Below are positions 34,979 through 57,615 of a stretch of DNA of 64,000 nucleotides, one piece after another. A program made the translations under genes and the position numbers. The stretch spans positions 64,179 through 128,178 of the forward strand of contig MU004184.1 in assembly GCA_010093605.1 (NCBI GenBank). Direction: 5' to 3'. How positions within the stretch are numbered: the stretch's first letter is position 1; each line of letters begins with the position of its first letter. The notes beneath the pieces were generated by a model, which was not told where the DNA came from, did not search any database, and saw only the letters and a list, made by a program, of their open reading frames with translations. Source of the stretch: Lophium mytilinum. Taxonomy: Eukaryota.

Positions 34979-35378
34979 GTGAGAAGAGCGAGTTCAGCGG
35001 ATGATGAAGAGGGGGCTGTGGGGGACAGTGAGTGTCTTGGACGTATGGAGGGATGTATGAGGTTTAATAGGATATGAAAGCTGATGTTCACGTGATCTCC
35101 GCCAAGGTCGATTTTTCTTCCAATGCTTAGCAGACTCTAATTTTACGTGCATTTGAATCAGAGTTTGAGAGAGCCAAGTGGTGAGCGTGCAGAGATAATA
35201 ATTGTAAGGATACTACGTTCTCACGTGAGGGCGCGTTATGGTTCTCCCCCGCTCGTGCCCCGTGTCATGAACATCACCTCGCGCACTAATCACCACCGCA
35301 TCCAAAGTGCATCGTGCCTCCCACTTGCAACCCCACCCTCATTTCAATTAGAAGCGCCGTTTTGGCTGCCTCCACTCA

Positions 35379-36377
35379 ATGGCACCCAGAAGCTCTTCCA
35401 AACGGAAACGTGTCTCCACCGCCACAGCCCACTCCGACCAAGTAACCGTCACACTAATCATCGGCCCGGATGCAACTCCCTTCGACATCCACCGCGAGCT
35501 ACTATGCAAGCGGTCCGAGTTCTTCCGGGGCGCATTTAAAGGCGGCTTCAAGGAAGCGGGCGAGCGGAGTATGGTATTGGAAGACGTGTCTGTTTCGTTG
35601 ATGCGGCAATTCATGCGTTGGATATATAATGGCGCATTTCCGTTCACCGCTAGTATTGAAGAAGGAGGGAGCGACGATGACCATGTTGTTTTGGACCCGG
35701 ATGAGCTGCTGGATCTGTATATTTTTGGCGATCGGTATGATCTCCCTACTCTAAGGGGTGATAGCCTTGCTATGATACAGGAGGCTTTTCGTGAGACGGG
35801 TGAGGGTATTGGAAAGGAGTCTGAGGAGGTCGAAGAGGAATTTGAGGAGGACGAAGGGGAGTTTGATGAGGATGAGGAGGAATTTGACGAGGATGAAGAG
35901 GAATTTGACGAGGACGAAGAGGGCGCTGACGACGAAGAGGATGACGATAATAATGAGGGCGATGGTGTCGAAAACGAAGAGGATGACGAAGAAGAAGAAG
36001 AAGAAGACCTCTCTATCCCCCTAGAACTCGTCGTACGTGCATATGAGAATCTCCCGCACTCTTCGGCTATGTGCAAATGGCTAGCGTGGCACATGTCCAT
36101 GAATTGGCAGCCGGGCGACCTCCATCCAGACGAGTTTGAGACCCTGGCTCACCTGCCGCATACTTTTATCCTTGCTGTCGCAATCTACGGTCGACAGCGA
36201 ATGGAACGGGCAATAGCGGACGATGTGCACGTTAATGACTTGGCGCTGTTGGAAGAAGAGGAAGACGAGAAGTGCTGCCAGTTTCATGAGCATGCTTTGA
36301 CTGGCCAGTGTTTAGATGTTGTGGATCATTCAGTGCTAAAAAAGATCTTTCGGAAGCTTGATGTTGTCAGCCAATGA
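35379..36377 (+). CDS. BTB/POZ domain protein (paralog 1) with acidic repeat insertion
   Basis: [51 protein letters not shown] and C-terminal CQFHEH. Confidence 0.92.
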   Translation: MAPRSSSKRKRVSTATAHSDQVTVTLIIGPDATPFDIHRELLCKRSEFFRGAFKGGFKEAGERSMVLEDVSVSLMRQFMRWIYNGAFPFTASIEEGGSDDDHVVLDPDELLDLYIFGDRYDLPTLRGDSLAMIQEAFRETGEGIGKESEEVEEEFEEDEGEFDEDEEEFDEDEEEFDEDEEGADDEEDDDNNEGDGVENEEDDEEEEEEDLSIPLELVVRAYENLPHSSAMCKWLAWHMSMNWQPGDLHPDEFETLAHLPHTFILAVAIYGRQRMERAIADDVHVNDLALLEEEEDEKCCQFHEHALTGQCLDVVDHSVLKKIFRKLDVVSQ

Positions 36378-37302
36378 TCATTGGAATCCTAACGGCTATC
36401 CGCCCAAGATTATTTTACGCTATGGTTCAGGATTGTCCCTCCCGTCGGGAACTTCTTCAATGATCTGCGTATGCTCTCCTTTCTTGAATCCGACTATAAG
36501 CACTGCATGGCACAGGGGAGAACATTGCGTGCGTAAAAGCAGAACTCTACCGGAATTCAACGCCTCGAATAGATAGATGGGACTAGGTGATGAAAGGACG
36601 GAGCAACCACTTGAAGGCTTTATAGGACGCCCTAAGTGTTGAAACTAGTAAGGGTTCTATCAATAGTATAGATGCTACCTACGTTCGTTGGTCCAGTACA
36701 TAGACGTAGCTATATAGTCTCTTCCACCTCGGAGTAACTCAAGGGGTGAATCAAACCTATATAACCTAATTTCAACTAAACCCTCCAGCAAAGATACACG
36801 GCTTCAATCTCAACCGAAAGGCCGGAAAGGCCACGCGATGTGGAGATTGTTTCCATGGCAGCAACATGTTTACAGAGAGTTGTAGCTCCTCGTGAATTGC
36901 TGCTTCTACATCACGTGAAACAACGAAATGCAGTCCAAAGATTTACTTTATGATAAGACAGGTAGCATGATTCTCTGACGATAGTGTTATCTTTACTCGA
37001 AATACAAACCACACTGTGATTTTTCAAAAAGGATCTTGGTATCGCAATCAAGTTTTGATTCCGACTGCGAGGATATGAAAGATAAGACATGTACAAGCAC
37101 ATTCTGGGCCAACTCTTTCGACGTGTCTGCACGTGCTAGCGCGTTTTGAACAGTCGCGCCTGATATCCCCCGCCTTGCCCGAACTCCTTCAAACTCAACT
37201 GCGGCGCCCTTTGAATTCTCAACGCAACTCACAAAACGAAGTTTGTAGACATATTTTCTCGATTGTAAATATCCCATACCACGGAAGCAGGTCAAACCCG
37301 CC

Positions 37303-38127
37303 ATGCCGCCCACAGGATCCCTCAAGCGCAAGCGCTCTTCCGCCTCCAATCTCCCCGTCAGCATGGAGCAAACCATCGTCACTGTCACCGTAGGCCCCAA
37401 CGGTACACCCTTCAATTTCCACCGCGGGCTCCTTTGTCGTTGCTCCGGATTCTTCAGGGGCGCCTTCAAAGGCAGCTTTAAAGAAGCCGGCGATCGCAGT
37501 GTTCACCTCGACGACGTATCCGTCCTCACCATGCAGCAATTCATGCAATGGATCTACAACAGCGCCTTTCTCACTGGTCCCGCTACCATCGCGTCATTTA
37601 ACGGCCCGTCGCATGAGCTTCTCACTCCTGACGAGATGCTCGACCTCTACGTCTTCGCGGACCGGTATGAGATTGTAACGCTGCGGAATGACATCGTCTA
37701 CGCCCTCCGCGTTGTAATGTACAACGTCCAGACTGGCAGCTATGGCAAAGACTTGCCTCTCGCGTTTGTCGAGCGTGCATATGAGAGACTGCCGCATACC
37801 TCGACGCTGTGTAAATGGCTGCGGTGGCATATGTCCGTGATGTGGGCTCCAGATCTGATGGACGAAGATGTGGAAAAATACGCATATCTACCGGCCAGTT
37901 TTTTGCTTGGAGTTGCGGTGCACTGCCGGATGCGGATTGAGTGGGCAGAGGATAAGGAGGTGTCTGCGCATGATGAGAGCCTGGTGGCGGTGGAGCAGTT
38001 CAGGTTGGGTTGCGAGTTCCATGAGCATGAGCAGGCGGGTGTTTGTCCAGGGAAAGGAGTGCCGGAATCCGATGTTTCGAAGCTGAATTTTACCTGGCTG
38101 ATGAAGTCGAAGTTGTCTTTACAGTGA
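37303..38127 (+). CDS. BTB/POZ domain protein (paralog 2)
   Basis: VTVTVGPNGTPFNFHRGLLCRCSGFFRGAFKGSFKEA, LYVFADRYEIVTLR and CEFHEH. Confidence 0.92.
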   Translation: MPPTGSLKRKRSSASNLPVSMEQTIVTVTVGPNGTPFNFHRGLLCRCSGFFRGAFKGSFKEAGDRSVHLDDVSVLTMQQFMQWIYNSAFLTGPATIASFNGPSHELLTPDEMLDLYVFADRYEIVTLRNDIVYALRVVMYNVQTGSYGKDLPLAFVERAYERLPHTSTLCKWLRWHMSVMWAPDLMDEDVEKYAYLPASFLLGVAVHCRMRIEWAEDKEVSAHDESLVAVEQFRLGCEFHEHEQAGVCPGKGVPESDVSKLNFTWLMKSKLSLQ

Positions 38128-38152: not shown

Positions 38153-40027
38153 TCATACATAGTGCAGCAAATCTCTGTCCGCGAAAAACTCACCAAGAGC
38201 ATCCTGCGCCTCAGCCCGAGTTCTACGCCGCTCACTTTTCTTCATTACGTGGCGCTGCTTTTCGCTTCGGAAAGCCTTTAAGTTACGGTCCCAGGCAACT
38301 TGCGCTCGTGATATGCGTGCTGGAAACGGAATCCATTCCAATGGGCTGACAATCTCTTCTCCAATTTTCAGCTCGACTTCGGTCGCTTTCTTCAGTGTTT
38401 TATAGCGAAGTCTTCTCCACTCTTTGTTTCTCCCTTTGTGTACCTTCCAGAACGTGATTTCCTCGCGGCCGCAACTGTCTAAGCTTGAGACCGAGCTTGG
38501 GTGATCCGGATCTTGATTTATCGAGTCTGGTTGTACGGATTGTACGGGTAAGAGGTGCTTTGTACTATCTGTCTCTTCGTCTCCAGAAAAGCACGATCGT
38601 ATGCTTGCGTTGCTCGCGTAGCCCCAGACGCTTGACCTGGAGCTCTCTTGCGCTATCGAAACTCGAATACCTTCTTTGGACGCTAGATCCAGGCTTTCGG
38701 AGACTCTGGGCAGAGAAGCAATGTCCTTATGGCCCTTTGAAGCCTGTGAACCCGCTGGAGTGGGAAGTTCGCCGTGTCCCAGGAAACGAATTGGGTGTTG
38801 TTGCAATTCTTCCGCCTCTGAGCTTTCGATTGATACGGTATCACCACTGTATTCTAGACCTTGTCCGTCCAGGTTCAGGTCCGGCGGTGTATCAGGGACA
38901 TCTGGCTCCTCAGGATCAACCTCAGGCGATGCCCAGCGATGGTCAAGAAAAGAATACGCCATCAAGGTCTTGTTGTATACTGCATTAACTGCGTCACGTA
39001 CTCGATCCCACTCTGAGGTCTCCTCCTTTGAATCCATCAATAAGCCCGATACCATGTCGCACAAATGCAACATCTCGACTTCCATGTTCTTCTCCGGATT
39101 CGGGCAATTTTTCAATACAGTTGTACGGTCAGCCAGCACTTGAAGGGCATCATTTTCGCCAAGTCGAATGTCATTCACAGCCGATAGCCAGATATCTTTG
39201 GCAGCCTGATTTGCGATTGATTCCACATATTCATATTCTTCTTGAAATTCATTTTCGAGTTCATAGTCACAAAGAAGCTGGTATTCGACCATATGCCTAG
39301 GACGTTGTTCCCCAGTTATTGTGCAGCGCATACTATATGGCATCCTTGATGTCTTAATGCGTGTATAACGAGAAGAAAACCTCCTTTTCGTGTTCAGTCG
39401 AAGCTTTGTTGATGATGTCTGCGTTGAGTCTGGACATTGGACAACTGAATATCTGAGAACTGGACATCTAGTGGCTTTTTGGCAAGCGATGGAAAAGCCG
39501 CTAGGAATCGGTGCGTAGGTTTCGTGTTTGGGGATTTCTTGGTCTTGTAGAATGTGAAGGTCGTCGTAGGCGTCGTCCAGTAGAACGTGAAGGTTGTCGT
39601 AGGTGTCGTCCACTGTAGGAACACATACCGTGATACGTGCTTTTACTAAAGCGGACAGTTTACTTGCAGTCAGAATGTAGTCTTGGCGAAGCTCCGATAG
39701 AGATAACGAGGCAAAATTTTTATACAACATTTCTTTGATAGAACACAGGAATGTTTTTGGAAATCGATCTGAAATCATGTCGGATGATTCCTGATTGTGG
39801 TACCATGCTAGAGCATTTGCAGCGCCATGATCGTGGTGCCATAGTAAGGCATTTTCAGAGACAGGAGAACGTAGAGACTTCGTGCGTTTCCTTGATTCTT
39901 TCTTTCGCCGGTTTCTCGCTTGCTTTCTTGATTCTTTGTTTCTCTGGTTTCCTGCCCATTTTACGTCACGTTGCGTTTGAGTGAGTTGGGGATGATTACT
40001 GGTCCGTCGATCCTTGGTCGGTTCCAT
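38153..40027 (-). CDS. Hypothetical protein, divergent from the HET gene
   Basis: 624-aa ATG-initiated ORF with a basic N-terminus and an internal 11-aa duplication DDTYDNLHVLL/DDAYDDLHILQ. No family was recognised. Confidence 0.65.
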   Translation of the reverse strand: MEPTKDRRTSNHPQLTQTQRDVKWAGNQRNKESRKQARNRRKKESRKRTKSLRSPVSENALLWHHDHGAANALAWYHNQESSDMISDRFPKTFLCSIKEMLYKNFASLSLSELRQDYILTASKLSALVKARITVCVPTVDDTYDNLHVLLDDAYDDLHILQDQEIPKHETYAPIPSGFSIACQKATRCPVLRYSVVQCPDSTQTSSTKLRLNTKRRFSSRYTRIKTSRMPYSMRCTITGEQRPRHMVEYQLLCDYELENEFQEEYEYVESIANQAAKDIWLSAVNDIRLGENDALQVLADRTTVLKNCPNPEKNMEVEMLHLCDMVSGLLMDSKEETSEWDRVRDAVNAVYNKTLMAYSFLDHRWASPEVDPEEPDVPDTPPDLNLDGQGLEYSGDTVSIESSEAEELQQHPIRFLGHGELPTPAGSQASKGHKDIASLPRVSESLDLASKEGIRVSIAQESSRSSVWGYASNASIRSCFSGDEETDSTKHLLPVQSVQPDSINQDPDHPSSVSSLDSCGREEITFWKVHKGRNKEWRRLRYKTLKKATEVELKIGEEIVSPLEWIPFPARISRAQVAWDRNLKAFRSEKQRHVMKKSERRRTRAEAQDALGEFFADRDLLHYV

Positions 40028-40437
40028 GATAAATCAGAGATCTGAGAAGACCAGATTAAGGGTGGCATATAACACAAGATGTTTAACAAGTCAAATGGAA
40101 TAATCTTGGAAGACGTGTGCGGGGCTTGCAGTCGAAAGAAGACATTACCTACCGCATTAGATTTTCAGCCTTGCACAGCCCAATTCTAAGGCTGTGTAGA
40201 CCGGTGAAGCTTGGTGGGCTGTGAGACGCCACAGAAACCTTCGGTTTGCAGCTGCCTTGCAACCAGGCCGTGCCTTGGTCGGAAAGCACATAACCATCAC
40301 GTCGCAGCCAGAGCGAGAAAGGTGGTAGTCATGAGAGTTGTTGCTTGGCCCTTTTCCGAGCGGCCCGGTGTTAGAATATCGTGTCTCCATCGCGCGACAA
40401 ATAGCTGGAGCGCTTCTTGAATCCGTCTCAGACGATC

Positions 40438-42652
40438 ATGTCGCTTTTGCAGTACCCATTGTCAAAGGGCGGAGATGCTCGGCTGTTCCTAGAAACTGTA
40501 AGACTGGCATATGCGCGTTTTGTGTAACCCCGTTGCGTTGTAGCCGAGGGTATGCTAACTCGCAAGGACGCAGAAGCGAAGCCAAGATGCCGCCGAACCC
40601 ATCCTGCGAAGCAAACAGCGATTGTGTGTAGCATGTCTGCAGTGGAGTTTGGGTGGTTTTCACCTCCGCGGCTCTCTTAGGCGCTGTGTAGTGGTGGATC
40701 AGTTGAGCATCACGAACATCACCGACCGACAATCCCAATGTTCGCTATGCACCTTATTTGCATCTGCACTTTCAAACAACGCCCAAACAAGCTTCTGGCC
40801 ATACCAAAAAGCGATGCTCGTCCGGGTGCCTAGTTCAATAATTTTCCCCTTAGGCATCAATGGGACGACGGCTATATCTGAATCTCTTGTCTGTGTCTGG
40901 ACGATTAGAAGAGAGGGTACCGGGGTCCAACTGCCCGCTGCATGGGAGAAAGGATGCATCGCAGAAGCTTCTCACGCTCCGACAACCAGCATCCCCAAGA
41001 CTGTTTCAATTCGCAAACTGAAGAGCCGAGGACTAGACTATGACATCTTCAAATCATGGATCCAGTATTGCAAAGACCACCACCGGTTCAATTGCCAAGA
41101 AAGTATCGGAGAGACATTGCCACGGATGAGGTTAATTGACTGTCTGGCATGTCCTCCGAGCCTAGTTCATGGTCGAGAAGCACAAAGCTACTTCGCGTTG
41201 AGTTACGTGTGGGGAAACTGCGTTGACACAAGCATCCGCTGCCCCTTCCCACGTCTCCCGGAAATACTTCCACGGGTGGTCGAGGATGCCATCGTAGTGA
41301 CTAGGAACATGGGCGGACGTTACTTATGGGTAGACCGCTACTGTATCCCTGACAGCAAAAAGATCAAACACGAACAAATAAGCAAGATGGACATTATATA
41401 TGCGGGCGCTGAGTTAACGATCTTCGCTGTGGCTGGCAAGGACGCTTCGTATGGGTTGCCTGGTGTTGGAAAGACTACACGGCGACCACAGCCATCAATA
41501 AGCATAGGTGGGAAGACATATGTCTCCACCCTAGGGGAGCCCACGGGTCAGATCCGGCACTCACAGTTTTGGGACCGTGCTTGGTGTTTCCAGGAACTCA
41601 TGCTCTCACGGAGACGCCTCATATTCACCGATGAGCAGGTATACTTCCAATGTAACAGCATGCACTGCCTTGAGATCCTATGGCAGCCGCTGGACCAGGT
41701 TCATCTGAAGGATCGCAGCATGATGCTGCCGGAGTTATTAACATTGGCTCTTTTTCCAGAGGGGGTGGTGGGTAAGAAAGCGGTCGACATCTATGAAGTG
41801 ATCGCGACATACTCGGCGAAGAACCTGTCATTTGAGGAAGATGGGCTCAAGGCCATTCTTGGCATATTTCGTATGTTCACGAAAAACTGCTCCGACACAT
41901 CCTTTCATCACTACACCGGAATACCAATGCTTGGTTCGACTTCCAAAAGCGATTTTCTACGCGGACTACTCTGGTATCCATCTGGACCTTTGAGAAGAAG
42001 GGTGAAAGGAAATTTTCCAAGCTGGTCTTGGATTGGCTTTGTTGGCCCAATTGCCTATCGTCGGTCTACGAATAATGATGATCAGGTTGACGAGAGAATT
42101 GAACTCCGTATAGGTCTGCGCGACAAGAAAGACAACAAAACGATGGATTGGCAGACATTTGTCGATTCCGGAAGGCTTGAAAGACTGCATCCTTTGCCGG
42201 GTCACATACATCTATACGCCAAAACGGCGATAGTTAAAGTCGTCTTCGCAGAGTATCGCGGGAAGCCGCAATATTGGGTTCGAATAGAAAGGTTCTCTGG
42301 GGACAGTTTTTGCTGCTCGAGTCTTACTTTGAACTGGGAAATGTTGCCATCTGGACGGCTTCCGCCTGATGTTCACAAGAAAATATTGAGCAGACCACTT
42401 AAATGTGTCCTGTTAAGGACAAACGACTCGTGGACAATATCTCCACTCAGGAAGAAGTCGCATTATTGCAGTAAAGCAATACTATTGTGGGTGAGAAATG
42501 GAGTTCGTGAGCGGATAGGGATTTTCCATGCCCAGCCTACGGACGCAGTGATTGGGACAGACGGAAAGATAACTCAAGATACCACGTACGCAGTTAAAAG
42601 AGGATGGGAGTTTTGTTCAAAGGCTGAATATGAGTGGATTCGATTAGATTAG
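40438..42652 (+). CDS. HET-domain (heterokaryon incompatibility, TIR-like) protein; exons 40438-40497, 40574-42652
   Basis: YFALSYVWG, DAIVVT...YLWVDRYCI, QISKMDIIYAGAELTI, WDRAWCFQE and FPSWSW. A gtaaga...gctaac...cag intron supplies the ATG exon. Confidence 0.93.
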
Positions 42653-43282
42653 TAGACTCGTCATACCCAGCAGATTCACCGTCTCCTTTAGATTCGCCGT
42701 ATTCGCCATCTTCGTCGAAATCCTCTTCGGCAGACTCGCCTTCGGCAAAGTCGCCTTCGGCAGACCTGTCATCTTGCAGCTGACTCAACATCTTCCTCGG
42801 ATTTACCATCTTCTTCGGATTTTCCATCTTCGTCCTCTTCCGACTCGAAAATTTCACGCAAGAGCCCAAAGTCAATCTGCTGCGTCATCGTCTCCGGCAG
42901 GTTCACATATTGCCGTTCCCCAGCGGCTTGGTTATACACAGTCGCTGTTTCGGGACTCGCATGTAGCGACGCGGACCATTGGCGGCGAACCACAGAGTTC
43001 CGTAAGTTTGCCTCGAGGATTTGGCTTCTGAACTTGCGGACGGGTGCCAGACGAGGACGAGCGGAAGAGCGTCGTGTTGAGGCATATGATAGGCGGCTGT
43101 TGGACATTAAGGAGACCTTTTCGAGCTGCCATTCCCATGAGCAAGATATCAGCCTTGTTAAAGAGATGGAACAGCGAGTGCATTTGGCGGCGCTTAGTTC
43201 GGCGAAGATTCGTGACTCGCATCAAAGTAGCCTCGGCCCTGGACATCCATCTCTGTACCACCAAGCACTTCTTCCTAGGGTA

Positions 43283-44373
43283 TCATTGTCCTCCTGAATG
43301 CATCGTATAATAAACCTGCAAGCCCCCCTCGACGCACTGCACCAGCCCAAAAAAGAGCGTCAGCACCAGCACTAGTATCGCCACCCAGAAGGTATACCAC
43401 TGCACCCCATTCCGTCGATCGCACCACCACTGTGCCAGTGTTCGCGGCCGCGCCTCGTCGAAGACTTGCTTGAGAATCACGAGGCGGTCGTGCCAGAAAG
43501 TGAATTTCGAGACCTGCCGGTCGTCGGTCTTGAGATGGCCGCAGCGGGCTAGGTTGGGATCAAGGTTGTGCAATGCAGAGACTTTAGACGACCATTTGCG
43601 TGTTTGTGCATCGTTTTGGGGAAAGAAGAGGGCGAGGGTGTGGAGGGTTTCGTAGATTAGGTTCGGTGGGAAGAGGGGGCTGTAAGAGCTGGTTAGCTTT
43701 GAAGCATGCAAGGTAGATGGTGCAGGACTCACTTGTGGAGTTGCAGCTCCAGGAATGATGCGTGGTGAAATATGGTCACTTTCGTATCATCGTCGGTCAT
43801 CCGGAGGTGGTCTGCGAGGTTGTTGGTCCAGACGATCTCGATACCTGCGATTCGGCGTAGATTGCGACCGTTGAAAATCTTCTCTAGCTTGACGCCTTCA
43901 TGCGTGTGGGCGGGAGGACTGCTGAAATGTGAATAGACGAAATCTTTGAGAGTTCCCTTGTCCCAGTTGAACTGTGAGCGTCCCGAGAAGCCATATTGAA
44001 GAATGCCGAAGTCGAGCATTAGGAGCAGTCGAGCCGCGAGGTCAATGGAGCTATCGAGAAGCCCGTCCTCGTTAAAAACGGTAGGCTTTGGGAGACTTTG
44101 CCTCAAGGAGTCTCGTAGTGTCTCCCGTGGGAGGGCGCCTTTGAGTTGCTGGGCAATCTCAAGGACGTGGTGATGGGTGCGGGCGGAAATGTGCCTGCCT
44201 CCATCGTGCAAGGCGTGGCTGCATTCTTCGGCATAGTACTTCCAGTATGCTCGAAGGTCGATGCCGTATGTATTTAGGTACTGCTGGACGGTATGGCTGC
44301 CCCAAAGATGGCGGGTGATGAGGGCTTTGGTCTCTGGGGAGAGGTTGAGGAGGGCGCTGTCGAGGGTTGACAT
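43283..44373 (-). CDS. Uncharacterised fungal protein with a C-terminal transmembrane helix (~345 aa); exons 44373-43733, 43679-43283
   Basis: A 53-nt intron joins two ORFs. Motifs: IAGIEIVWTNNLADHL, IFHHASFL, ETLHTLALFFP, FWHDRLVIL, WWCDRRNGVQWYTFWVAILVLVLTLFFGLVQ. Confidence 0.88.
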
Positions 44374-44771
44374 GGTGGTGCGGCTTCCGAAAGCTCTCTA
44401 CTTACCTAACACGGAGCTCCAACACCATACCCCACAAATTGTATAGACTTCGACCATGAGACTTCTTGAGGCATCGTTCTGTCCGCTTCCATATTTCTGC
44501 CCTACAACTCCACCATCCGAGTGCCAAGGTTGCTCCGCCTCGAGAAAGAAGGCAACTGCATTCGCGTCCTCCACCAAGTTTCTGCGGGGACGCGTCACGA
44601 TGGCTGAGCAGCGTCGCCCGCATAACCCAATGGGCGGCAATCTGGAAGGTGGCTGCTCCAAGGACGCAATCATTAAACTAGGTAGCTGTGTCATACTTCC
44701 CTTAATGTCTGCACTTGCCCATTATCTTCTTTTTCCTCCTCCTCTGTTCCTGGCAGCTGCCATGCCTAGAC

Positions 44772-47700
44772 ATGGACACTTTCGCAAGAATACGTCGCAG
44801 CAAAGCAAGTAAGCCTTGGGCGGAGCCAAACCTGTCCATCGGTAAGTACATAGGAGAAATTGGAAGAAACATCTGTTGGGAAGCTACTGGGCCGGCGAGG
44901 GAGGCCTTTGTCAAGCTAGGGCCCGATATCAAGTCTTGTTTGGACAAACGGAGCGAACCTCTATCCAGCTGGGTCACATACTCGGTGTACATGATTGGCA
45001 GCTCCCCAAAGACCGCATCTCCAACCATTATTTTCTGTTCCAGCGATTCCAGCCTGCGTCGTGAGATCCGAAAGATCGTCAAAGAAAGTGGCCTTCTCAG
45101 CATTTACCCCGGCTTGCGGACTGGAGATATGGCAAGAGCACCTGACTTGGACCAGCTTGTTCAACTGGCTACGCATGAAACAGGGTCAGTTGATGATGAG
45201 TCTTTCTCTGAGACTAGCGTGGCGAATCTACCAACGATCCACGCCAGACCATCTGACAGCGCTCCCGGTACGCAAATCTACATACATAGTTCCACTGAAG
45301 AAACGGACGCCCCCCGAAAGGCCACTATCGGAGGCGTGGTGGAATTTGCAGGCAAATACTACTATTTGACGGCTGGACATGCTTTCGAGCATCATCACGA
45401 CCCTTTCACATCTCAACGAACGAATGGTGATGATTACGAACTTGACGTGGACGACGAAAGTGACCTCGATGACGAATCTTTCGGGATAGAGGACGTCGAA
45501 GCCACCAGCAGAGGGAGTCTTACCCCAGAGTACGCCAGTTCCGAAGCTGAGTACTCATCCTGCGACGAGCATTCCTACCCATCAAGTAGTCGACCAGAAA
45601 GCCTCAAAGAGTGGAGTATTCCTGACCTGGAGCTGGATATCGCGGCTCGGAGCGAGACCTTGGTAGGACTTGTATCTCGTGCGGCCGACCGTCCTGTAAT
45701 GCCAAACCCCTCTTCTCTCGTTAATGTAGGAAGGCTCGCCATGACATCATTCGACTCACGGGATGATAGCTTGGACTATGCCCTCGTCGAGATTACATCT
45801 GGTACGCTTTCGAATGAACTACATATTCCCGGAGTATCAGGGCATCGGTCTCTTGTCCCACGACGAGTTCAACGCACTAGCTCTGTCGATGTCTCCATAT
45901 TCGCTGCCACCGGGTCTAGAGGTCTCATTGCTGGCCGGCTATCAGGAACGCCGTCATTCATGCGTCTACCTGATAGCATAGCATGTCAAGAAGTCTACAC
46001 AATACGACTGGATGGCCCTCTTGCGAATGGCGATTGCGGATCCTGGGTCATGGATGCGGACAGCGGAGATCTCTATGGACATGTCGTTGCCGGCTCTCCA
46101 AACACAGGGGTTGCATACGTTATCCCTTCCCATCAGGTTTTTGATAGAGTTGGGAAACGACTCGGCGGCGCTTTGAAGTTTCCCTCGTCGACCAAGTTAG
46201 CACTACCGTCTTCGACGCAACAACCTAGGCCTACGGAATCACCGAATGTTGGAAATAAAACCAACCAAGCAACGGCTCAACGGCTTTCCCTGACGGCGCC
46301 GAAACTCCTTCTAAGTCAAACAGCACATGGCGCACTAAACTACCAGCACTCTTCTACACCGTCGGCTCTATCAGACAACGATCAGCTAGCTAAAGACTTG
46401 ACTAAGAAGTTTCGGACCGTTCTCAGCACTAGGAGAATGGACCAGCTGACAGCCCGTACAGCGGCATCAAAGATAGAGTCCCCCCCACTTCCATCAGCCT
46501 CCTCCCAGTCGATGGAATCTCCGCCACCATATTCAAGTCTACACGATGCTCCCCCGATACCGCCACCTCCCCCATCATACTCAAGTCTCCGCAACATTCC
46601 CTTGGTACCGCAGCCTCCGCAAGATGCCCAATCACTTCAGTTCAGAAAGATGTTACGTTCCTTATCTGAGCTGCCCCTCTGCTGGGAAAACCCCGGCCTG
46701 CTGGATGAAGCCTTACAAGTCTTGCCGTTGGAGCAGATCTACAACGAAGCAGAAGAAGAGAGCCAGACATTTCAAGCCGAAACCGAATCTTTGGGATCCG
46801 GCAAAAAGGCACGATATGGTTACCAAGACTGCGTGGTTCGCGCCCTACTGCGCTGGTTCAAGCGATCATTCTTCACGTGGGTCAACAACCCAGTGTGCTC
46901 AAGATGCAGCGATCCTACCGTCAGTGTAGGAATGGCTGACCCCACTCCCGAGGAATGGGCCCTATCCGCCAAAATTGTTGAGCTCTACAAATGCTCCACA
47001 TGTGACAATTTCGAAAGGTTTCCACGTTATGAGAACGCCTTCGCTCTTTTGCGAACCAGACGTGGACACTGCGGAGAGTGGACAAACTGTTTTGGCATGC
47101 TTTGTCGAGCCTTAGGATCACGGGTCCGCTGGGTATGGAACGCAGAAGACCACGTGTGGACTGAAACCTATTCATATCACAGGAAGAGGTGGATACACGT
47201 CGATGTCTGCGAGGAGGCTTGGGATAAGCCCAGGCTTTACACTGAAGGTAAGCATGACCAGTTCGACTTCACTGACATGCAGCTTCTGAATACACGATCT
47301 GAGACTGATTTCTCGACAGGTTGGGGAAGAAAGCTTAGTTACTGCATCGCCTTCTCGAGCGACGGCGCGACCGATGTCACTCGCCGCTATGTCCGCGACT
47401 TTTCCCGCTACGGCACTGAACGAGCCAGGGCACCCGAAAGCTGCCTCTTGTACATTCTGGACGAGATCAACAGCATGCGCCGCGGAAAAGGCTCTCCCCA
47501 GGACCGATTCAAGCTCCAGGGTGAGGATATGAGGGAGGGACGCGAACTTCGCCACTATACCATCATTGCAATCGTGTACCGCTTGTCACAGCTGACAGAA
47601 TTCGATTTTACACACCCAGCGCCTGCCTCGAGGAGGCAAATCGAGGAAGAGACTGCCGATGAACGAAAAGAGCGGGATGAAAGTAAGTCTTTGCACTTTT

Positions 47701-47826
47701 CATGAACGGCCTGGTTTTCCATCCTAACGCAATGTAGATTTCCATCGATGGCTTACGGCAAGATACGATGCCAGTGGAACGCAAGAGTCGCAAGAACGAT
47801 TTGACCCGAATCGCGATGTGAGCTGA
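44772..47826 (+). CDS. Fusion protein: N-terminal domain + trypsin-fold (PA clan) protease with Cys nucleophile + full Png1/peptide:N-glycanase transglutaminase domain; exons 44772-47247, 47320-47682, 47738-47826
   Basis: Protease motifs LTAGH, DYALV and GDCGSWV. Png1 motifs WENPGLLDEAL, LLRWFKRSFFTWVN, CSRC/CSTC, RGHCGEW, EDHVW, HVD and GWGRKLSY (after removing a 72-nt in-frame intron). Confidence 0.9.
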
Positions 47827-48102: not shown

Positions 48103-49170
48103 CTAGTTTGACGCCCCCCTTCGCTCCGATCCTCCTATCAAGGTGGCCGCTCTAGTCTGCATTGTTCTAGTATATCCGGACCGGAAGGAAGCTGAGTAGA
48201 CTCTTACGCGACTTTGAGAGCCCGAAACCTCGGTATGAACGGTGCGAAATCCTGTATGTCCATCATAGCCTCGCCCGACGCACCGTATCCTTTGAATGAG
48301 AACATAATCTCCGCCACCCAAAATTTTCTTTTCTTGGGTCGTATAGATAGAAGAGCTTGCGGCATTGCCCTGAATCGCTGCGGAGCCTCCGGGAGCTTGA
48401 CGTTCGGCAAGTTGACGTTCGAAGTCCCGGATGCATTCCCGCCAATGGAGGGCCATCTTGAGAGTGAAATACGAAGGCAGGTTAGGTAGCAAATCGCACT
48501 CCTGTTGAGAGAGGGAAGAATAGTCGAGTACCAGAGAGAAGTAGAACGGCAGCCACATGCAGAGAGTCGAGTGATTCGGAAGATTCTCGTATGCTCGTAT
48601 GACGAACTGCAAGGACAGACGCCCTTTGGCAGGAACATGTCCGGTAGCCTTTGTTTCATAGCCATCTTGATAGATAGCTCGGAACATTCCCAGCACCTCG
48701 TTTCGAAGTGCTACGATCTCGTATCGGTCTCCGAAGATATAGAGATCCAGGAGTTCGCGCTCTCCCACAAGCTCCGGTAGACCATCCTCATAGCCATGGC
48801 GCCTGGTAAAAGGATACGAGCCATTGTATAGCCATTGCATGAACAGACTCATTAGGTGTACGGATGTATCGGCAAGTACAACGCTCCGCTCCGTTGATGA
48901 TTTGATTCCACCTTCGAAGGCGCCGCGAAAGAACCCAGAGCAGTTGCACAACAGCTCGCGATGTATGTTGAACGGCGTAGCCTCTGGACCGACCTTTAGT
49001 GTAACAGTGGCTTGATCGGTGGGGTCGTGGTCATCAATGGACGCTGACATCGTAGGCATATTCAGAGATGCGCTTTCGTCCTTGGTAGGACTTTCGAGTG
49101 GCATTCGGTATTGCTGGGATTCGGGCGGTTGGAACTTCACGAACCTTGCTAATCGAGTTTCGAGTGACAT
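48103..49170 (-). CDS. BTB/POZ domain protein (paralog 3); start and 3' end uncertain
   Basis: [47 protein letters not shown] and RAYENLP. Confidence 0.88.
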   Translation of the reverse strand: MSLETRLARFVKFQPPESQQYRMPLESPTKDESASLNMPTMSASIDDHDPTDQATVTLKVGPEATPFNIHRELLCNCSGFFRGAFEGGIKSSTERSVVLADTSVHLMSLFMQWLYNGSYPFTRRHGYEDGLPELVGERELLDLYIFGDRYEIVALRNEVLGMFRAIYQDGYETKATGHVPAKGRLSLQFVIRAYENLPNHSTLCMWLPFYFSLVLDYSSLSQQECDLLPNLPSYFTLKMALHWRECIRDFERQLAERQAPGGSAAIQGNAASSSIYTTQEKKILGGGDYVLIQRIRCVGRGYDGHTGFRTVHTEVSGSQSRVRVYSASFRSGYTRTMQTRAATLIGGSERRGASN

Positions 49171-50148: not shown

Positions 50149-51123
50149 TTAACATTCTGGTGAAGAACTCCTGATCCTTCGGAACCTCGATCTAAAAATG
50201 GGACTATTGTACAGATCCAGGGCCGGACATGGTCCTTCAGATAGTGGCGGTGAATGCAGAACGCAAACTAATTTACCCGACTTGGCCGTGTCTTCATATA
50301 CCACGAAACGATCCGGATGATCAGGGTGAATACCAAGAACGCACCGATAGGCACGAATGGGATATCGTTGTAATTTCTTGATGTTCTTGGTAAGTCCCAA
50401 TAGCCTCAGCCTGTCGCAGGACTGCGTCGCGACGCCGAGAAGAAAAGTTGCTGGCAACTGGGGCAGAAACTCCTGATCATGATCTATGATAACTTTAGGG
50501 TTCCAAGTGCAGGCAAAGTGATCTACGAGCCATTTGCAGAGCTCTGAATTGTCCGGAAGGTTTTCAAACGCGCGTAGTACAAACTCCAAGGAAACGTTGC
50601 GATCAGAGACTGCTAGCCTAATCACTGCGAGCCGCTGAATCATATCCAAGCAATCTCGCCGCAGATCTGGGACGTCGTAACGATCACCGAAAACGAACAG
50701 GTCCAACAATTCGTCTTGATCTAGAATCTTGTGGTCTTGCAGAAACCCTTCGGTCTCCGGCGTGGCATCACCATCGGCAAAGGAGAACACTATGCCATTG
50801 TACAGCCATTGCGTGAATTGTCGCATCGAAGCTACTGTCACATCGTCCAGAGCAATGGTACGTTCCTCAGCCTCCTTGAAGCCGCCCTTGAACGCGCCTC
50901 GAAAATATTGCGAGTGCCTACAGAGTAGGTCTTCATGTATATGGAATGGAACGGCCTCGGGGCCTGCCTTTAGCGTCACGATTGCTAAGCCGGTAGGGAT
51001 GCTGCCTTGAGTGGTCGTACGCGCGGGCGACGGCCTTGTGTTGGTGGTGGGATGGCTGGACTCGCTCGCACCGTTCAACAGCCTAGCTGACCGCTTGCGT
51101 TTGAGGGATCCTTCGGACGACAT
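50149..51123 (-). CDS. BTB/POZ domain protein (paralog 4)
   Basis: ATG 51123 (MSSEGSLKRKRS), VTLKAGPEAVPFHIHEDLLCRHSQYFRGAFKGGFKEA and LFVFGDRYDVPDLR. Confidence 0.9.
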   Translation of the reverse strand: MSSEGSLKRKRSARLLNGASESSHPTTNTRPSPARTTTQGSIPTGLAIVTLKAGPEAVPFHIHEDLLCRHSQYFRGAFKGGFKEAEERTIALDDVTVASMRQFTQWLYNGIVFSFADGDATPETEGFLQDHKILDQDELLDLFVFGDRYDVPDLRRDCLDMIQRLAVIRLAVSDRNVSLEFVLRAFENLPDNSELCKWLVDHFACTWNPKVIIDHDQEFLPQLPATFLLGVATQSCDRLRLLGLTKNIKKLQRYPIRAYRCVLGIHPDHPDRFVVYEDTAKSGKLVCVLHSPPLSEGPCPALDLYNSPIFRSRFRRIRSSSPEC

Positions 51124-52574
51124 GCTGCAAAGGCAATTGAAGGATATCGAGCGCTTTGGAACGCTGATGCGGTAGCGGGAGGTTTTTGGAGGGGAATGTA
51201 GGCAGAGGGTGTTTACTAGGTGGAGTGTTAGATGGTGGGCATGGAAGAAGACAGGGGCGACGGGGAGCGTAAGCACAAACCGCGCCAGCACGTGCAGATC
51301 ACTCGACTCTCACACTCCTTCACACAGAGTACAACCAATATGGCGTCTCAGACTAGCGCTTCACTGAAATTATTTACAATGACTCAGAATGTCTAAAGAT
51401 CAATTCTACTGAAGATATTTTCACGTGACCTGAGACGTCCGCCCCAAACTTCTCCTAGGAACAACATCCATTCGCTGCTGTCATGCCTCAGCATGGACTG
51501 CATGAGCCAGAGACACCGAAACATCTATAGATCCATCAGTTTCTCACCAAAAAAAGCAGCATTCCTACTCCTATTCACCCCTCATATCACCTCCGAATTC
51601 AGACCAAAAACAACATATGTATGAGCCGAGATCCCTGACAGTCTAAACCCAGCTTAAAACCCTCAATTTTAGTGTAGGGGAGGGTGGGTCCATCCCGGCG
51701 TCACATCACCCCTCCAGAGCGCCATGTTTCCGCACGCCGCTCGAATCTAAGCTTCGTGCCGTGCTAGGTTAGAGTAGTGCCTCGAAAATCCCCAGCACGT
51801 CACTAGGGCCCTACTTCCCTATCTCGAAGGCGTTGAACTTGGCGCTCTGGAGGTTGATTGCCTCTTCTGTGCTGTGGAAGGGCGTCATTGTTGGCTTGGC
51901 CTCGAAGCGGAGCTATGGCTACAGCTGGGCTTGGTGAGGGCGTGGGCCGTGGTGGGGGAAGATATGTGGGGCGTGCAAGAGGTAGGTAGGATGGAATAAG
52001 AGTTCGTTGACGAATGGAAAAAGGGGAGTTTTTACTACCGTATGGACACCTTTTGAGGGCTGTGTCTGATGTGAACGTTGTTGATACGGGTGGCGCCGTC
52101 CCCAAACAGCTCTCGTCTCCCGAGTCCTCCTCGTCTTCGCCGTATGCCATCCCTAATACCAGATCATTAGTTCTTCAAATCTGCAACGAAGTTGTTAACC
52201 TTTACCTACTTTCCCCTTCGCTCTCACTAGCATCGCCTGACTATCGCCGCCGTCCTCTCGCCCCGCTCACGCTGCTATAACATGACGGCAACAGATTTCC
52301 CAACCCAAATTCTAACATCCAGAATCCAACATCACCTTCCAAACGTCGAAACATTACGGCGTTACCCCAAGCAGTGCCAAACTACCGCGCAATTCTTTCT
52401 CCTACTCCCTCAAGACCGCACACTCCTCACACGTCTCAACTTCCTTCGGCATGGACTCCTCTGTATCAAACACCCTCAGCTCTGTATCGCCGTTTTCCGC
52501 CCCAATCCTGTTCGCCAATCTCGCGTGCGCCCGGCACGGACGCCAGACCAGCACGTTCTGCAACGATCTGGCGA

Positions 52575-54308: not shown

Positions 54309-55052
54309 TCAACTACCTGTTCCACGGATTGCCACATTGGGATAAGGTTGCATCGTGGACACATCCCTATTGACACGCTCCTCCTCCTCCAAAAACAAGA
54401 TTTCGTATCTACGGCGGTATGATTCAAGTTCCCAGTCCTCTTCTGTAACCCCATGATCCTCCATATGCGAGAACCTTGATTGCGATAAAATTGCGATGCG
54501 CAGCAAGAATGGCTGTGGTAGTAGGGGTAGTTTGTCTCTATGCTCGTTGAAGGTAAGGTCTCTTCTGTACGCAAAGACGAAAGCCAACCAATGGCACAAC
54601 GGGGCATCCTCCGGTAGATTATCATAGGCCCGGATAACCAAGTCCAGAGTGACATATTTCCCGTTATTATTGGTACTATCCCGGAAAATACACATGACCC
54701 CCCTTCGCAGCGCGGGGATGTTATAGCGGTCGCCGAAGATGTAGAGGTCGAGGAGGTCGTTTTCGTGGAATGTTTCCCGGTCGCTGGTGCTTTTCTCGAG
54801 TATCGGCTTCAACTCGTCGTTGTACAACCATTGCATGAATAGTTGCATCGTAGATTGAGACGTGTCATCTAGTTTCATGATCCTGTCGGACGCTTCTTTG
54901 AACCCTCCCATGAAGCCTGAGCGAAAGACTGTGGAACACTCGCAGAGCAGATCGCAGTGAACGTGGAAAGGGATAGCGTCGGCGCTTATGAGTAAGGTGA
55001 CTATTGGGGAGGAGGGGGCGAAATGGACGCAGCGGTTGCGGATGGGCGCCAT
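54309..55052 (-). CDS. BTB/POZ domain protein (paralog 5)
   Basis: [51 protein letters not shown] and RAYDNLP. Confidence 0.88.
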
Positions 55053-55464
55053 TTCGTTGATGCGGATGCCAGGGCCGGAGCCGTCGAGAAATCGTGATTT
55101 AATACGGAGCTGTGGGAGTTCAATCAGGTGGGAGAAAGAAGGATGAGGAGCAAACTGTCCAGATCTTAGTTTCAGAGTCGCCACGAACTTCCGTGTAGAT
55201 TCCAATATGTCCCATGGTACTCATGATTTAGCCCATGGTTGAAGTAATGATGCTTGGCGGGTCTTGGCGTCAAATTCCTGTCCTCTATTCAAGATCGCGC
55301 TTAGTGTCCGCCTGGATACTATCCAATGATGCGAGGAGGCTAACTTGTCGATATGAATCCAGAAACGAAAAAGAAAGCAAGCTATTACCTGTTGGTTATA
55401 ACCAATTTCAGTTTTTTCTGGTAACACCTAAAAGCCATATGAAGGAATATCTTGCTTGCTAGAA

Positions 55465-56409
55465 TTAGTTGGCTAAGGAACCGGGTTGGTGAGTCCTGTT
55501 TACTCGTCGGGATGGATTGGCCAAGGAACTGGGGATGGTGATGGTTATCCCACCTGTTCGCCGGGACGGGATGACCACGGACGACGCCGTCCTCTTTACC
55601 TGCTTACTAGGCACAGGGGACTCATTGGCAGCCTTATCTTTGCATCTCAGCTCAGCTAGCCGAGCTGATTCCTCCGTACAGAGAGCAGTTGAATCTTCAT
55701 CGTCATGCTCGTGGAAATGGCAGGGATCCTCGTTGAATTCTCCGCCGGCGGTAGGAATCAAACTCTCCTTATTTGTAGCCTGCAACAGTAAGAATCGTCT
55801 TCTACTGATCACTGCTACGCCTAATAGAAATTCGTGTGGCATGTTGTCGTAGGCGGCAATGTCGTCGTCGTTATCTTTTGCCGGGTTCCAATAGTGTGCA
55901 AAGTACTGGATCAGCCATCGACAAAGCGTGGAGGACGCCGGCAGCTTTTCGAAGGCCCGATGTATGTACGATGTCGACAAACTTTGAGCGGTACGATGGC
56001 CATACTGTATCTGAATGTATCTCATGGCAACATTACGTAGCTCCGGGACTTCGTAACGATCTCCAAACGCGTATAGATCGAGAAGCTCAGCGCTAGACAG
56101 ATGCCACGCGGGCTTGCTGCTATTCGACGTACGCTGGGTCTCTAGCTCTTGGGTATAGAGCCACTTCATGAGGATCTGCATCGTCTTGACATTGGTCTCC
56201 ACTGTGGTCGTGCGCTCCTCGGCTTCCTTGAAAGCGCCCTTGAAGAGTCCCCGGAAGTATTCAGAACAACCGCATAACAGCTCCAAATGCACATTGTATG
56301 GAGTGGCATCGGGGCCGACTTTCAGGGTCACGATTGTTTGGTCGGTGGGAGAGATGAAGGAGGATCGCTTGCGTTTGAGGGTCGGTGTCGATGACGCGGA
56401 TGGAGGCAT
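55465..56409 (-). CDS. BTB/POZ domain protein (paralog 6)
   Basis: TLKRKRS, VTLKVGPDATPYNVHLELLCGCSEYFRGLFKGAFKEA, LYAFGDRYEVPELR and PCHFHEH. Confidence 0.92.
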   Translation of the reverse strand: MPPSASSTPTLKRKRSSFISPTDQTIVTLKVGPDATPYNVHLELLCGCSEYFRGLFKGAFKEAEERTTTVETNVKTMQILMKWLYTQELETQRTSNSSKPAWHLSSAELLDLYAFGDRYEVPELRNVAMRYIQIQYGHRTAQSLSTSYIHRAFEKLPASSTLCRWLIQYFAHYWNPAKDNDDDIAAYDNMPHEFLLGVAVISRRRFLLLQATNKESLIPTAGGEFNEDPCHFHEHDDEDSTALCTEESARLAELRCKDKAANESPVPSKQVKRTASSVVIPSRRTGGITITIPSSLANPSRRVNRTHQPGSLAN

Positions 56410-57615
56410 TGAGGCAGCAGGGCCAGGGCCGGATCGAAGTCTTGTAGACGTAGGTTGACAATGGTCTGTAAGATGCCGGCTGATGGGATGTTGACGGTGG
56501 TGAAGCTGGAGAGCTGGTGGATACCGTACCGTGTGCAAGAAGGGGTGGCAGTCGCGCCTTTGGTCTCGCGTCTCGAATAGATGATACAGCGCTGTAAATA
56601 TGTAGGTATCTATACTCGAGTATTACCCGGTGAGTTGATGGCAAGTATGTATGGCGTCGACGGTCTTGAAGATGGAGAGTTGGCGAATCCAACGCTAGAA
56701 AGTTGAGTGGCAGGGTGACTCTCGTGGGAACGCGCCTGCTAAAGCTGCCTACTGCCCCTCAACACCATCGTCAGGGCTCCATTCCACCAACCCTAACACC
56801 GTCTTCACGATGGCCTAGCTATCCATATCTTCGGCACCAATCCTTTAGCATAACTGGGTGTAGACTTGAGCCTATACCTACCAATCATTCGCGGCTACGG
56901 CTTTCAGAATGCTGACCCATGTCTTGGCTTCCCCTCACAGCTGAGCCCTCGAGCATTGATAGAACACGCTGCACATCGACTAAATTCAGAGAAGTTCAAA
57001 AGAGGTTTAGACCTTTGTTGAAAGGTTCAAGATGTTTCCTTTTCTCCAATATCTCGCGACTGCAATATATACGAACGTCACATCTATCGGCGGACTCGAG
57101 TAATCCTCATCCAGTCATGCTCAGCTGCGGAGACGCGCCATCTCCGCACTTCCAAGAGGTCCCAAGACGGCTCCTCCGCCCTCTTCCTTGATCCTTATGC
57201 AAGCATCGAATCAAGCACAATCTTGCAGTCTCTATACGGAACTGCCATGGTAGCATGTACGACGTCGAAAGACTTGCGGGCTGGTTGCAGGGCGTGGCGG
57301 TGGCCACGAGGTTCTCTTCTATTTTTCGTTCTAAATTCTGTTTCCTGGACTTTTCATTTACACCTTTCTGATAAATTCTAATTTTCACGTGCATCTTTAT
57401 CACCCCCTGCGGGATTGATCTTCCGGCCCAAGTATTCGGCTGCTGAGTAACAGTCTGGACCTTAGGCCATATTTCTATCCTCAAACTACGAGTTCCTAGA
57501 CCGAAGTAGAAACTGAGCTCCCATTGATAGTTCTAGCTGTACCTCCAATTTCATCTTTCAGGCAACCTGGTAGGATTATATCAGGTTCGAGTCATTCCTA
57601 TGCCTCCGCTACAGC

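Follow-up and report, generated by a model that had tools for sequence, protein, structure and literature searches.

What joins two genes that diverge from one short promoter in the genome of Lophium mytilinum, when one of them encodes a membrane protein and the other a protease that carries a peptide:N-glycanase (PNGase) domain? The question is raised by a 64,000-nucleotide stretch of contig MU004184.1 (assembly GCA_010093605.1, positions 64,179 to 128,178 of the forward strand), here called the window, in which the two genes, designated gene A and gene B, lie at positions 43283..47826. An earlier note on this DNA, made from its letters alone, had read the pair as a possible cell-death or non-self module analogous to fungal gasdermin clusters, in which the protease activates the membrane protein and the appended PNGase domain serves as sensor or decoy. 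The analysis described here shows that A and B form a conserved two-gene module that is found Pezizomycotina-wide, and it is highly probable that the two function together. How they do so is a more tentative matter, and the reading that is favoured below, a two-gene module for regulated proteolysis on the cytosolic side of a membrane, with B acting on A or together with it, is best described as possible rather than probable. In the window, the two genes and the region between them are laid out as follows.

43283..43679, minus strand: exon 2 of gene A, coding to 43286, with the stop codon at 43285-43283
43334..43432, minus strand: Trp-rich juxtamembrane segment (QWWCDRRNGVQWYTFW) and single C-terminal transmembrane helix of A, residues 297-329
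43680..43732, minus strand: intron of gene A, 53 nt, GT..AG (GTGAGT...CAG), exactly skipped by a spliced contig
43733..44373, minus strand: exon 1 of gene A, residues 1-213 and two bases of codon 214, with the ATG at 44373; it holds most of the cytosolic domain and the motifs ECxxALHDGGRH, RTHxD, WTNNLADHL and IFHHASFL
44374..44771, no strand: shared divergent spacer, 398 bp between the two ATGs
44772..47247, plus strand: exon 1 of gene B, with the ATG at 44772, encoding the N-terminal domain, the protease, a linker and most of the PNG1 domain; placed by the open reading frame (ORF) and the splice junction
47248..47319, plus strand: intron 1 of gene B, 72 nt, in frame, GT..AG, skipped by the spliced contig
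47320..47682, plus strand: exon 2 of gene B, placed by the spliced contig
47683..47737, plus strand: intron 2 of gene B, 55 nt, GT..AG, holding the stop codon of the unspliced ORF at 47703-47705
47738..47826, plus strand: exon 3 of gene B, including the stop codon

The earlier note had described a head-to-head pair with start codons at 44373 and 44772 and about 400 bp between them, and this proved to be exact, with a spacer of 398 bp (the median in homologous loci is 538 bp, range 278-2165); the span 43283..47826 runs from stop codon to stop codon, as confirmed by the spliced contig. This contig, which comes from the public run X1 and was aligned to 43200-47800, skips 43680-43732, 47248-47319 and 47683-47737, all of them GT..AG introns on the appropriate strand, and the skipping of these three introns indicates that X1 is RNA-derived, that A and B are spliced as modelled, and that B ends at 47826. 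Both genes are expressed, as spliced RNA; the contig also spans the spacer and enters neighbouring genes, and it defines neither single transcripts nor expression levels.

That the two genes belong together is best seen from their linkage in other fungi. Metagenome loci with relatives of A (the best 80 of 190 confirmed) were scanned by tblastn with four parts of B, and linkage is counted from the A side, the loci having been collected through A homologues. Among the 45 loci in which the A start is preceded by 1500 nt or more, B was found head-to-head in 38 and downstream on the same strand in two, leaving five in which no B was found. When loci were dereplicated at 95% nucleotide identity, 33 of 61 groups had the same upstream room, comprising 28 head-to-head groups, one with B downstream, one mixed and three without B; after a local hidden Markov model (HMM) located B in locus L047, these 33 groups stand at 29 head-to-head, one downstream, one mixed and two without. 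The recurrent linkage of A homologues to proteases with TAGH, DYAL and GD[CS]G motifs, which the earlier note had proposed as a sign of a functional pair, is found in 31/33 groups (the mixed group counted), mostly in the head-to-head orientation, and the pairing is far beyond chance. Named hits come from the Dothideomycetes, Leotiomycetes, Sordariomycetes and Geoglossomycetes, and in Glutinoglossum A and B carry the adjacent locus tags FGG08_004252 and FGG08_004253; several further pairs of A and B matches lie on contigs of equal length. The identity matrices of A and B from 20 loci are correlated (Mantel r 0.82, with 0/2000 permutations as high), which speaks for co-inheritance of the two genes and not for their interaction. 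No third conserved gene was found: in 30 loci with 6 kb or more of sequence, A and B have no other ORF family as a recurrent neighbour.

Promoter-sharing divergent gene pairs are common in fungi, and this counts for a view in which A and B are co-regulated neighbours that are mechanistically independent of each other, held together by a bidirectional promoter and old synteny only. Such a view is quite improbable, since the linkage persists across four classes, through repeated replacement of the C-terminus of B and through a change in the orientation of the pair (L011/L046), and since no other neighbour is conserved. A domain fusion also exists: protein P0247 (990 aa) joins a B-like protease (205-619; GDSG, with a Ser nucleophile) to an A-like domain that has the Trp-rich segment and the transmembrane helix (642-979).

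As an observation in its own right, L010 (1-3480) matches L008 at 99.6% identity from a point some 400 nt ahead of the A start codon onward (L009 was also compared), and farther upstream it consists of unrelated DNA with a HET ORF where B would be; L010 could be a presence/absence variant or a second copy, or its assembly could be chimeric.

The product of gene A is a protein of 345 aa, 100% identical to the database protein P0002 from Lophium mytilinum (Dothideomycete, Mytilinidiales). Its length, its Trp-rich segment and its one transmembrane helix (at about 312-330) agree with the earlier description, and the motifs WTNNLADHL, FHHASFL and DRRN..QWYTFW given there are all present. The sole hydrophobic stretch, residues 312-330 of 345 (Kyte-Doolittle 19-residue mean 2.57), is preceded by QWWCDRRNGVQWYTFW and followed by about 16 residues, and an N-terminal signal sequence was not found in the protein; A is a predicted tail-anchored protein with a cytosolic domain and a short tail beyond the helix. 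In an AlphaFold2 model made with 37 homologues (mean predicted local distance difference test score (pLDDT) 83.3, predicted template-modelling score (pTM) 0.80), a mixed alpha/beta cytosolic domain is followed by one long helix at 305-342, and pLDDT falls below 50 in one segment alone, the conserved loop YGFSGR (residues 126-133). In an alignment of 37 sequences drawn from four classes, column identity averages 55%, with invariant or nearly invariant residues at C51, H56, D57, H61, H67, D69, D188, H189, H203, H204 and E224, and the block QWWxDRRNGVQWYTFWVAxLVLxLTxxFGLxQxxEGxLQ is almost invariant among the 37 homologues. The family is large, with 2707 clusters at 50% identity at E<=0.001 and 587 at E<=1e-30 in a profile search of 1.84 billion representatives, a cluster count that is inflated by exon-sized metagenome fragments.

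The cytosolic domain of A is likely a new fold, as judged from the model. No Pfam family was found at E<=10 with either exon or at E<=1 with the 37 homologues, and matches of DUF5326 and DUF6722, which lay below the cut-offs and covered the transmembrane segment only, were set aside as spurious. Foldseek returned nothing from the Protein Data Bank (PDB) at E<=0.001 (best E 0.32), the top score of a wide VIA search against 48,161 representative chains was Z 5.0 and involved the terminal helix only, and a second look with VIA reached no more than Z 3.3; these fold searches ran on the whole model. Gasdermin, HeLo, MLKL and Bcl-2 folds gave no match to A in the same whole-model searches by Foldseek and VIA. 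The ESM Atlas returned A's own family alone, all Ascomycota. DUF6601 was considered as a fold relative and rejected, the similarity being too weak (template-modelling scores 0.23/0.31). A longer family member, P0219 (664 aa), carries a helical N-terminal domain of about 200 residues and a disordered linker ahead of its A-like domain, and Pfam gave nothing for the part before that domain at E<=0.01.

Gene B encodes 975 aa when spliced (the unspliced ORF runs to 47705 and has 977 codons), and its first half is a protease core with the following parts.

44799..45176, plus strand: N-terminal domain, about residues 10-135, AlphaFold2 pLDDT 89-97, aligning with the pre-protease domain of rice NAL1
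45252..46190, plus strand: protease domain, residues 161-473, chymotrypsin (S1/PA) fold
45378-45380, 45774-45776 and 46035-46037, plus strand: catalytic triad His203, Asp335 and Cys422, in the motifs TAGH, DYAL and GDCGS
45468..45683, plus strand: disordered acidic insertion, residues 233-304, between His and Asp

The model of residues 1-543 is confident over 10-135 and 155-475, with a disordered linker from about 480. The S1 fold is indicated by alignments of the protease to Streptomyces griseus proteases and alpha-lytic protease (174-183 residues aligned, root-mean-square deviation (rmsd) 2.6-3.1, Z 17-18.4), the best being S. griseus protease B in the VIA search (Z 18.4, rmsd 2.6, 174/185 residues), with alpha-lytic protease at Z 17.6. 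Rice NAL1 chains align to residues 8-481 of the model (263-281 residues, Z 14.2-16.8), and because this alignment spans both domains, the N-terminal domain of B is the counterpart of the one found ahead of the protease in NAL1. Among 40 aligned relatives of B, His203 and Asp335 never vary and conservation is >=90% at G420, D421, C422 and S424, and in 51 B sequences the nucleophile motif reads GDCGS in 42, GDSG in three and GICGS in one, with the pattern not found in five. Exchange between Cys and Ser at the nucleophile is as expected of an enzyme that is kept active, and B itself is probably catalytically active. Sequence profiles see little of this core: Pfam gave nothing for residues 1-543 even at E<=10, the 40 family members gave a sub-threshold Trypsin_2 match in two and Peptidase_S64 or Nal1_C in none, and a profile search of PDB sequences with B returned PNGases only at E<=1, with no NAL1 and no S1 protease. 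As a lead only, feature neighbours in the ESM Atlas include a cluster in which 10% of members carry Peptidase_S64 (score 0.95) and clusters in which 19-33% carry Nal1_C (score 0.92). B lacks a hydrophobic helix (maximum 0.91). On the model, B is predicted to be a soluble intracellular chymotrypsin-fold endoprotease with a Cys nucleophile and a NAL1-like core, and both products are predicted to face the cytosol, B having no hydrophobic helix and A being tail-anchored. A short motif in the insertion at 233-304, TS[RK]GS[LR]TPE, is conserved across classes in B and its homologues and could be a phosphorylation or processing site.

The closest known counterpart of this core is NAL1 of rice (PDB 8PMG, 8PMI and 7Y77), an intracellular regulatory protease in which, as in B, an N-terminal domain is followed by an S1-fold protease. 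NAL1 is reported to form a hexameric cage within which it hydrolyses FZP, a transcription factor, with S385 as its nucleophile (PMC12012508). Unlike NAL1, B has a Cys nucleophile in place of Ser385, an acidic insertion of 70 residues that separates His from Asp, and a large variable C-terminus, and the likeness between the two is one of structure. No membrane-protein gene is known as a partner of NAL1 (PMC12012508), whereas B has A. A second comparison is with SltB of Aspergillus nidulans and Ssy5 of yeast, which like B are proteases, intracellular and chymotrypsin-like, that carry a large accessory domain, and each of which acts on one dedicated partner. SltB processes itself and also cuts SltA, while Ssy5 is a protease located peripherally at the plasma membrane (PMC4985261). 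These proteases differ from B in having a Ser nucleophile, an N-terminal accessory domain and transcription-factor substrates, and the Pfam S64 family was not found in the 40 B members.

The C-terminal part of B was described in the earlier note as a complete Png1, behind an N-terminal domain and a trypsin-fold protease, and all three elements were recovered, with the S1 fold, the Pfam matches and both catalytic triads in place.

46692..47682, plus strand: PNG1 (peptide:N-glycanase) domain of B, broken by the intron 47248-47319, with Pfam and PDB profile matches
47070-47072, 47151-47153 and 47202-47204, plus strand: PNGase triad Cys767, His794 and Asp811, in RRGHCGEW, DHVW and HVDVCE
residues 709 and 741, plus strand: PNGase CxxC pairs, CSRC and CSTC

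Pfam assigns this part to Transglut_core (PF01841, E 9.8e-13) and Rad4 (PF03835, E 4.3e-08), and mouse and yeast PNGase structures match the B profile at E 9e-30 and 1e-25 with their motifs lined up. The C-terminal 330 residues of B resemble PNG1/NGLY1 in having Transglut_core and Rad4, the two CxxC pairs and the Cys-His-Asp triad, which holds the catalytic residues of PNGases. The domain shares 56-69% identity with fungal PNG1 proteins that stand alone (about 440 aa), but unlike canonical PNG1 it is fused behind a protease, and it groups with fast-evolving B-linked copies (weak support, 81). Massariosphaeria (P0354, P0126) and Neodidymelliopsis (P0343, P0128) have a stand-alone and a fused PNG1 in one species, which makes the fused domain a paralogue in these two cases. 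A stand-alone Lophium PNG1 was not found among the 120 listed of 1270 matches. In a quick tree, too coarse for deep relations or for counting fusion events, the branches of fused or B-linked copies are long (0.45-3.16, compared with a median of 0.1), and the domain in the window pairs with the B-linked copy of Mytilinidion (support 98), the wider group of B-linked copies being the weakly supported one. This Mytilinidion copy (P0328), which comes from the closest relative, shares its contig with its A gene and has Val where Lophium has Cys at 47070-47072, a difference that takes two base changes or conversion from another PNG1 copy.

The state of the catalytic Cys bears on whether the domain is a decoy. 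Among 13 other fused PNGase homologues the Cys motif was found in 12, and only one of these retains the Cys, the other 11 having Val, Asn, Ile, Ala, Gly or Ser in its place, which is compatible with the decoy idea of the earlier note. That idea is only weakly supported, however, as the copy in the window keeps its Cys, and Cys loss is not specific to fused copies, since Val stands at this position in 26 of the 120 listed (of 1270) PNG1-like proteins. Png1 orthologues of the Pezizomycotina are described as commonly carrying such Cys substitutions and yet as mattering for growth and septal-pore plugging (PMC10848947).

The presence of a PNGase and a protease in one polypeptide, with a membrane-anchored protein encoded next door, also brings a different kind of action to mind. 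The animal enzymes NGLY1 and DDI2 act on the membrane-bound factor NFE2L1, and B could by analogy deglycosylate and clip A with its two domains jointly. Taken as an account of the module this is scarcely credible, as the PNGase domain occurs in 4/24 dereplicated groups only, and the catalytic Cys is missing from most of its fused copies. An N-x-S/T sequon after the transmembrane helix was found in 0/37 A homologues, which indicates that A is probably not N-glycosylated, and PNGase-plus-protease action on A itself is, to judge from these sequences, unlikely.

What is attached to the protease varies from one fungus to another. The PNGase domain is found in four of the 24 head-to-head groups with >=2 kb of sequence beyond the protease, and in other loci ORFs that are continuous with the protease or lie beside it encode ankyrin repeats (L077), an SF1 helicase with AAA_11/AAA_12 (L060), CBM_21 (L043) and ULD_2 with DUF7896 (L061). 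Among database homologues of B, the C-terminus is an NDT80_PhoG domain in P0133, kinase-like in P0142, and a HeLo-like PigL_N domain within one continuous ORF in P0158, with multi-pass hydrophobic tails in P0123 and P0151 and no recognisable C-terminal domain in many others. The expectation of the earlier note that linked proteases would differ in their C-terminal domains has thus been borne out, with PNG1-like, ankyrin, helicase, CBM21, ubiquitin-like, NDT80, kinase-like and HeLo-like versions. Three homologues that lack a PNGase domain (P0124, P0127 and P0132, one of them from the Leotiomycete Stipitochalara) have a long low-complexity charged C-terminal region, which in all three ends with the strongly conserved motif ...RRHRVLYDDG[VI]YRWE.

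A protease acting on its neighbour is the simplest mechanism for such a pair. In this mechanism, A and B would be co-expressed from the shared 398-bp promoter, and the swappable C-terminal domain of B, here a PNG1 paralogue, would select the cue, the place or the partner. Engagement of this domain would lead the protease to cut A, for which the disordered conserved loop at about 126-133 (YGFSGR) and the region ahead of the Trp-rich segment are candidate sites, and the cut would part the cytosolic domain of A from its membrane segment and so change the activity of A. This reading is supported by the persistence of the pairing while the C-terminal domain of B varies, and by a topology that fits, B having no hydrophobic helix and A having one at its C-terminus. 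That B acts on A is suggested because fungal gasdermins cluster with the proteases that activate them, which is a genomic precedent, and it receives some support because P0247 fuses both domains. SltB, with its single dedicated partner, is a further precedent (PMC4985261). By this analogy B may quite possibly cleave A, although we stop short of calling this step probable, and that membrane damage or cell death would be the outcome is a doubtful suggestion.

Several findings weigh against B acting on A in this manner. A is far better conserved than B (mean pairwise identity 47% vs 31%), and its invariant His, Asp and Cys motifs resemble a metal or active site, and both features suggest that A may be an enzyme or a sensor and not a passive substrate. 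The nearest structural and feature neighbours of B, namely NAL1 and the Peptidase_S64 and Nal1_C clusters, process transcription factors rather than membrane proteins encoded beside them. In addition, A occurs without a detectable B in the L037/L038 and L054 groups, and the A gene of L010, which is near-identical to that of L008, has a HET gene upstream instead of B; alternative proteases beside A were looked for in L038, L054 and L010 and none was found. A complex prediction for B(1-480) with A(1-345) scored 0.00 with controls not run, and counts neither for nor against binding.

In a different assignment of roles, A would be a membrane sensor or docking platform that holds and controls B, and not its substrate. 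Activated B would then autoprocess and free its own C-terminal domain as an output, or would cut a soluble target such as a transcription factor, in the manner of the signalling proteases SltB, Ssy5 and NAL1. Both the role given to A and the output given to B are conceivable but fall below the cleavage of A in likelihood. A would here be a slow-evolving, enzyme-like or sensor-like partner, and its conservation is better accounted for, as are C-terminal domains of output type such as the NDT80 and HeLo-like ones. The core of B, including its N-terminal domain, resembles NAL1, which hydrolyses FZP (PMC12012508), the Atlas neighbours of B include the Peptidase_S64 and Nal1_C clusters described above, and autoproteolysis of SltB is reported to separate two domains in a protease that also cleaves SltA (PMC4985261). 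Some of the C-terminal domains look like outputs, including the DNA-binding NDT80 domain of P0133, the kinase-like domain of P0142 and the HeLo-like PigL_N domain of P0158, but the ankyrin, CBM21 and PNG1-like C-termini resemble binding modules more closely. The stretch that joins the protease to the C-terminal domains yielded no conserved cleavage motif, and Pfam S64 and Nal1_C were each present in 0/40 members. It also counts against this assignment of roles that the partner genes of the known signalling proteases are not known to lie beside them.

The regulated-proteolysis reading has a special case, which is the cell-death or non-self immune cassette of the earlier note, with the housekeeping copy as decoy or sensor and B as the activator of a membrane-permeabilising A. 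The comparison on which it draws is with fungal gasdermin genes, which are described as clustering with proteases that cleave them (PMC12881547). Such clusters, including HET-Q1/HET-Q2, resemble the A-B pair in placing a protease with variable accessory domains next to a membrane-targeting protein (PMC12881547, PMC8851545), and the variable domains include repeats and kinase-like domains (PMC12881547), as they do in B. The proteases of these clusters are of the S8 or CHAT type, however, whereas B has the S1 fold, and A is tail-anchored and highly conserved, with an unmatched fold. The proposed analogy with gasdermin modules is therefore upheld in part, in that a conserved cassette of a protease and a membrane protein does exist, but no gasdermin family and, in the whole-model searches, no gasdermin fold was detected, the protease belongs to a different class, and A is strongly conserved.

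Swapping of the C-terminal domain of B, with ankyrin, kinase-like and HeLo-like forms, recalls the fungal NLR-type and gasdermin-controlling receptors described in PMC12881547, and the long branches of the fused PNGase domains and the loss of the Cys in 11/12 of them fit an immune role as well. The large A family, the HET gene that adjoins the pair here and the HET genes near A in four other groups, the possible presence/absence variant (L010 vs L008), and the polar stripe of the transmembrane helix (T321, G325, Q328, E331 and Q335), which follows a Trp-rich interfacial segment, point in the same direction. Against these stand the lack of any gasdermin, HeLo, MLKL or Bcl-2 fold match for A in the searches described above, and a cytosolic domain whose high conservation is unusual for an inhibitory pro-domain. 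The strong conservation of A together with its invariant His and Asp motifs makes it unlike typical fast-evolving death effectors. The triad is intact in the PNGase domain of the window, and canonical PNG1 is often without the Cys too (PMC10848947). NB-ARC and NACHT domains are absent, and the closest functional precedents of B, which are NAL1, Ssy5 and SltB, are signalling proteases and not death triggers, which weighs against a decoy or death role. The immune cassette is on balance rather unlikely, though less so than mechanistic independence of the two genes, and the role may instead lie in stress or homeostatic signalling. The same degree of doubt attaches to its most developed form, a hitherto unrecognised intracellular surveillance or cell-fate system of filamentous ascomycetes in which a NAL1-like Cys protease would carry an interchangeable housekeeping 'bait' (PNG1, NDT80, kinase, helicase or ankyrin), and in which a perturbed bait would cause the protease to cleave the product of the adjacent gene, a tail-anchored executioner of new fold. 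If true, this would be a system made of unrelated parts that parallels, in function, both gasdermin/caspase systems and the integrated-decoy receptors of plants.

No description of the A-B pair, of the A family or of fungal NAL1-like proteases was found in the searchable literature, a coverage that leaves out most subscription journals and supplements. If A and B form a switch of protease and partner, a widespread regulated-proteolysis module would be added to fungal cell biology, with parts unrelated to the known gasdermin, S8 and CHAT systems. A large orphan family whose fold has no match would thereby gain a function, NAL1-type proteases would be known from fungi as well as plants, in the fungal case with a Cys nucleophile, and the fusion of degenerate copies of the essential PNG1 to a protease would be explained.

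In the spacers of 36 dereplicated head-to-head loci and the window, the 7-mer CAGCCTC occurs in 14/37, where about 2.5 are expected, an enrichment that is weak and not relied on here, the control being a mononucleotide shuffle and the k-mers having been picked after looking; it is absent from the 398-bp spacer of the window itself.

The neighbouring genes in the window include the HET gene that the earlier note had correctly placed beside the pair, and it is given here as context only.

40814..42652, plus strand: HET-domain gene, Pfam HET E 1.7e-28, convergent with gene A

HET-like ORFs lie near A in just four other dereplicated groups (L002/L003, L070/L071, L035 and L010), with varying position and orientation, and the HET gene is not a conserved part of the module. 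A 626-codon open frame without a Pfam match lies on the minus strand at 38156-40033, between BTB/POZ genes and the HET gene. These BTB/POZ genes are six paralogues with 36-55% mutual identity, which flank the HET-A-B block on both sides.

35352-36374 and 37249-38124, plus strand: BTB/POZ paralogues to the left of the block
48106-49170, 50152-51309, 54312-55220 and 55468-56622, minus strand: BTB/POZ paralogues to the right of the block

With the left members on the plus strand and the right members on the minus strand, the layout looks as if the HET-A-B block lay within an array of BTB genes.

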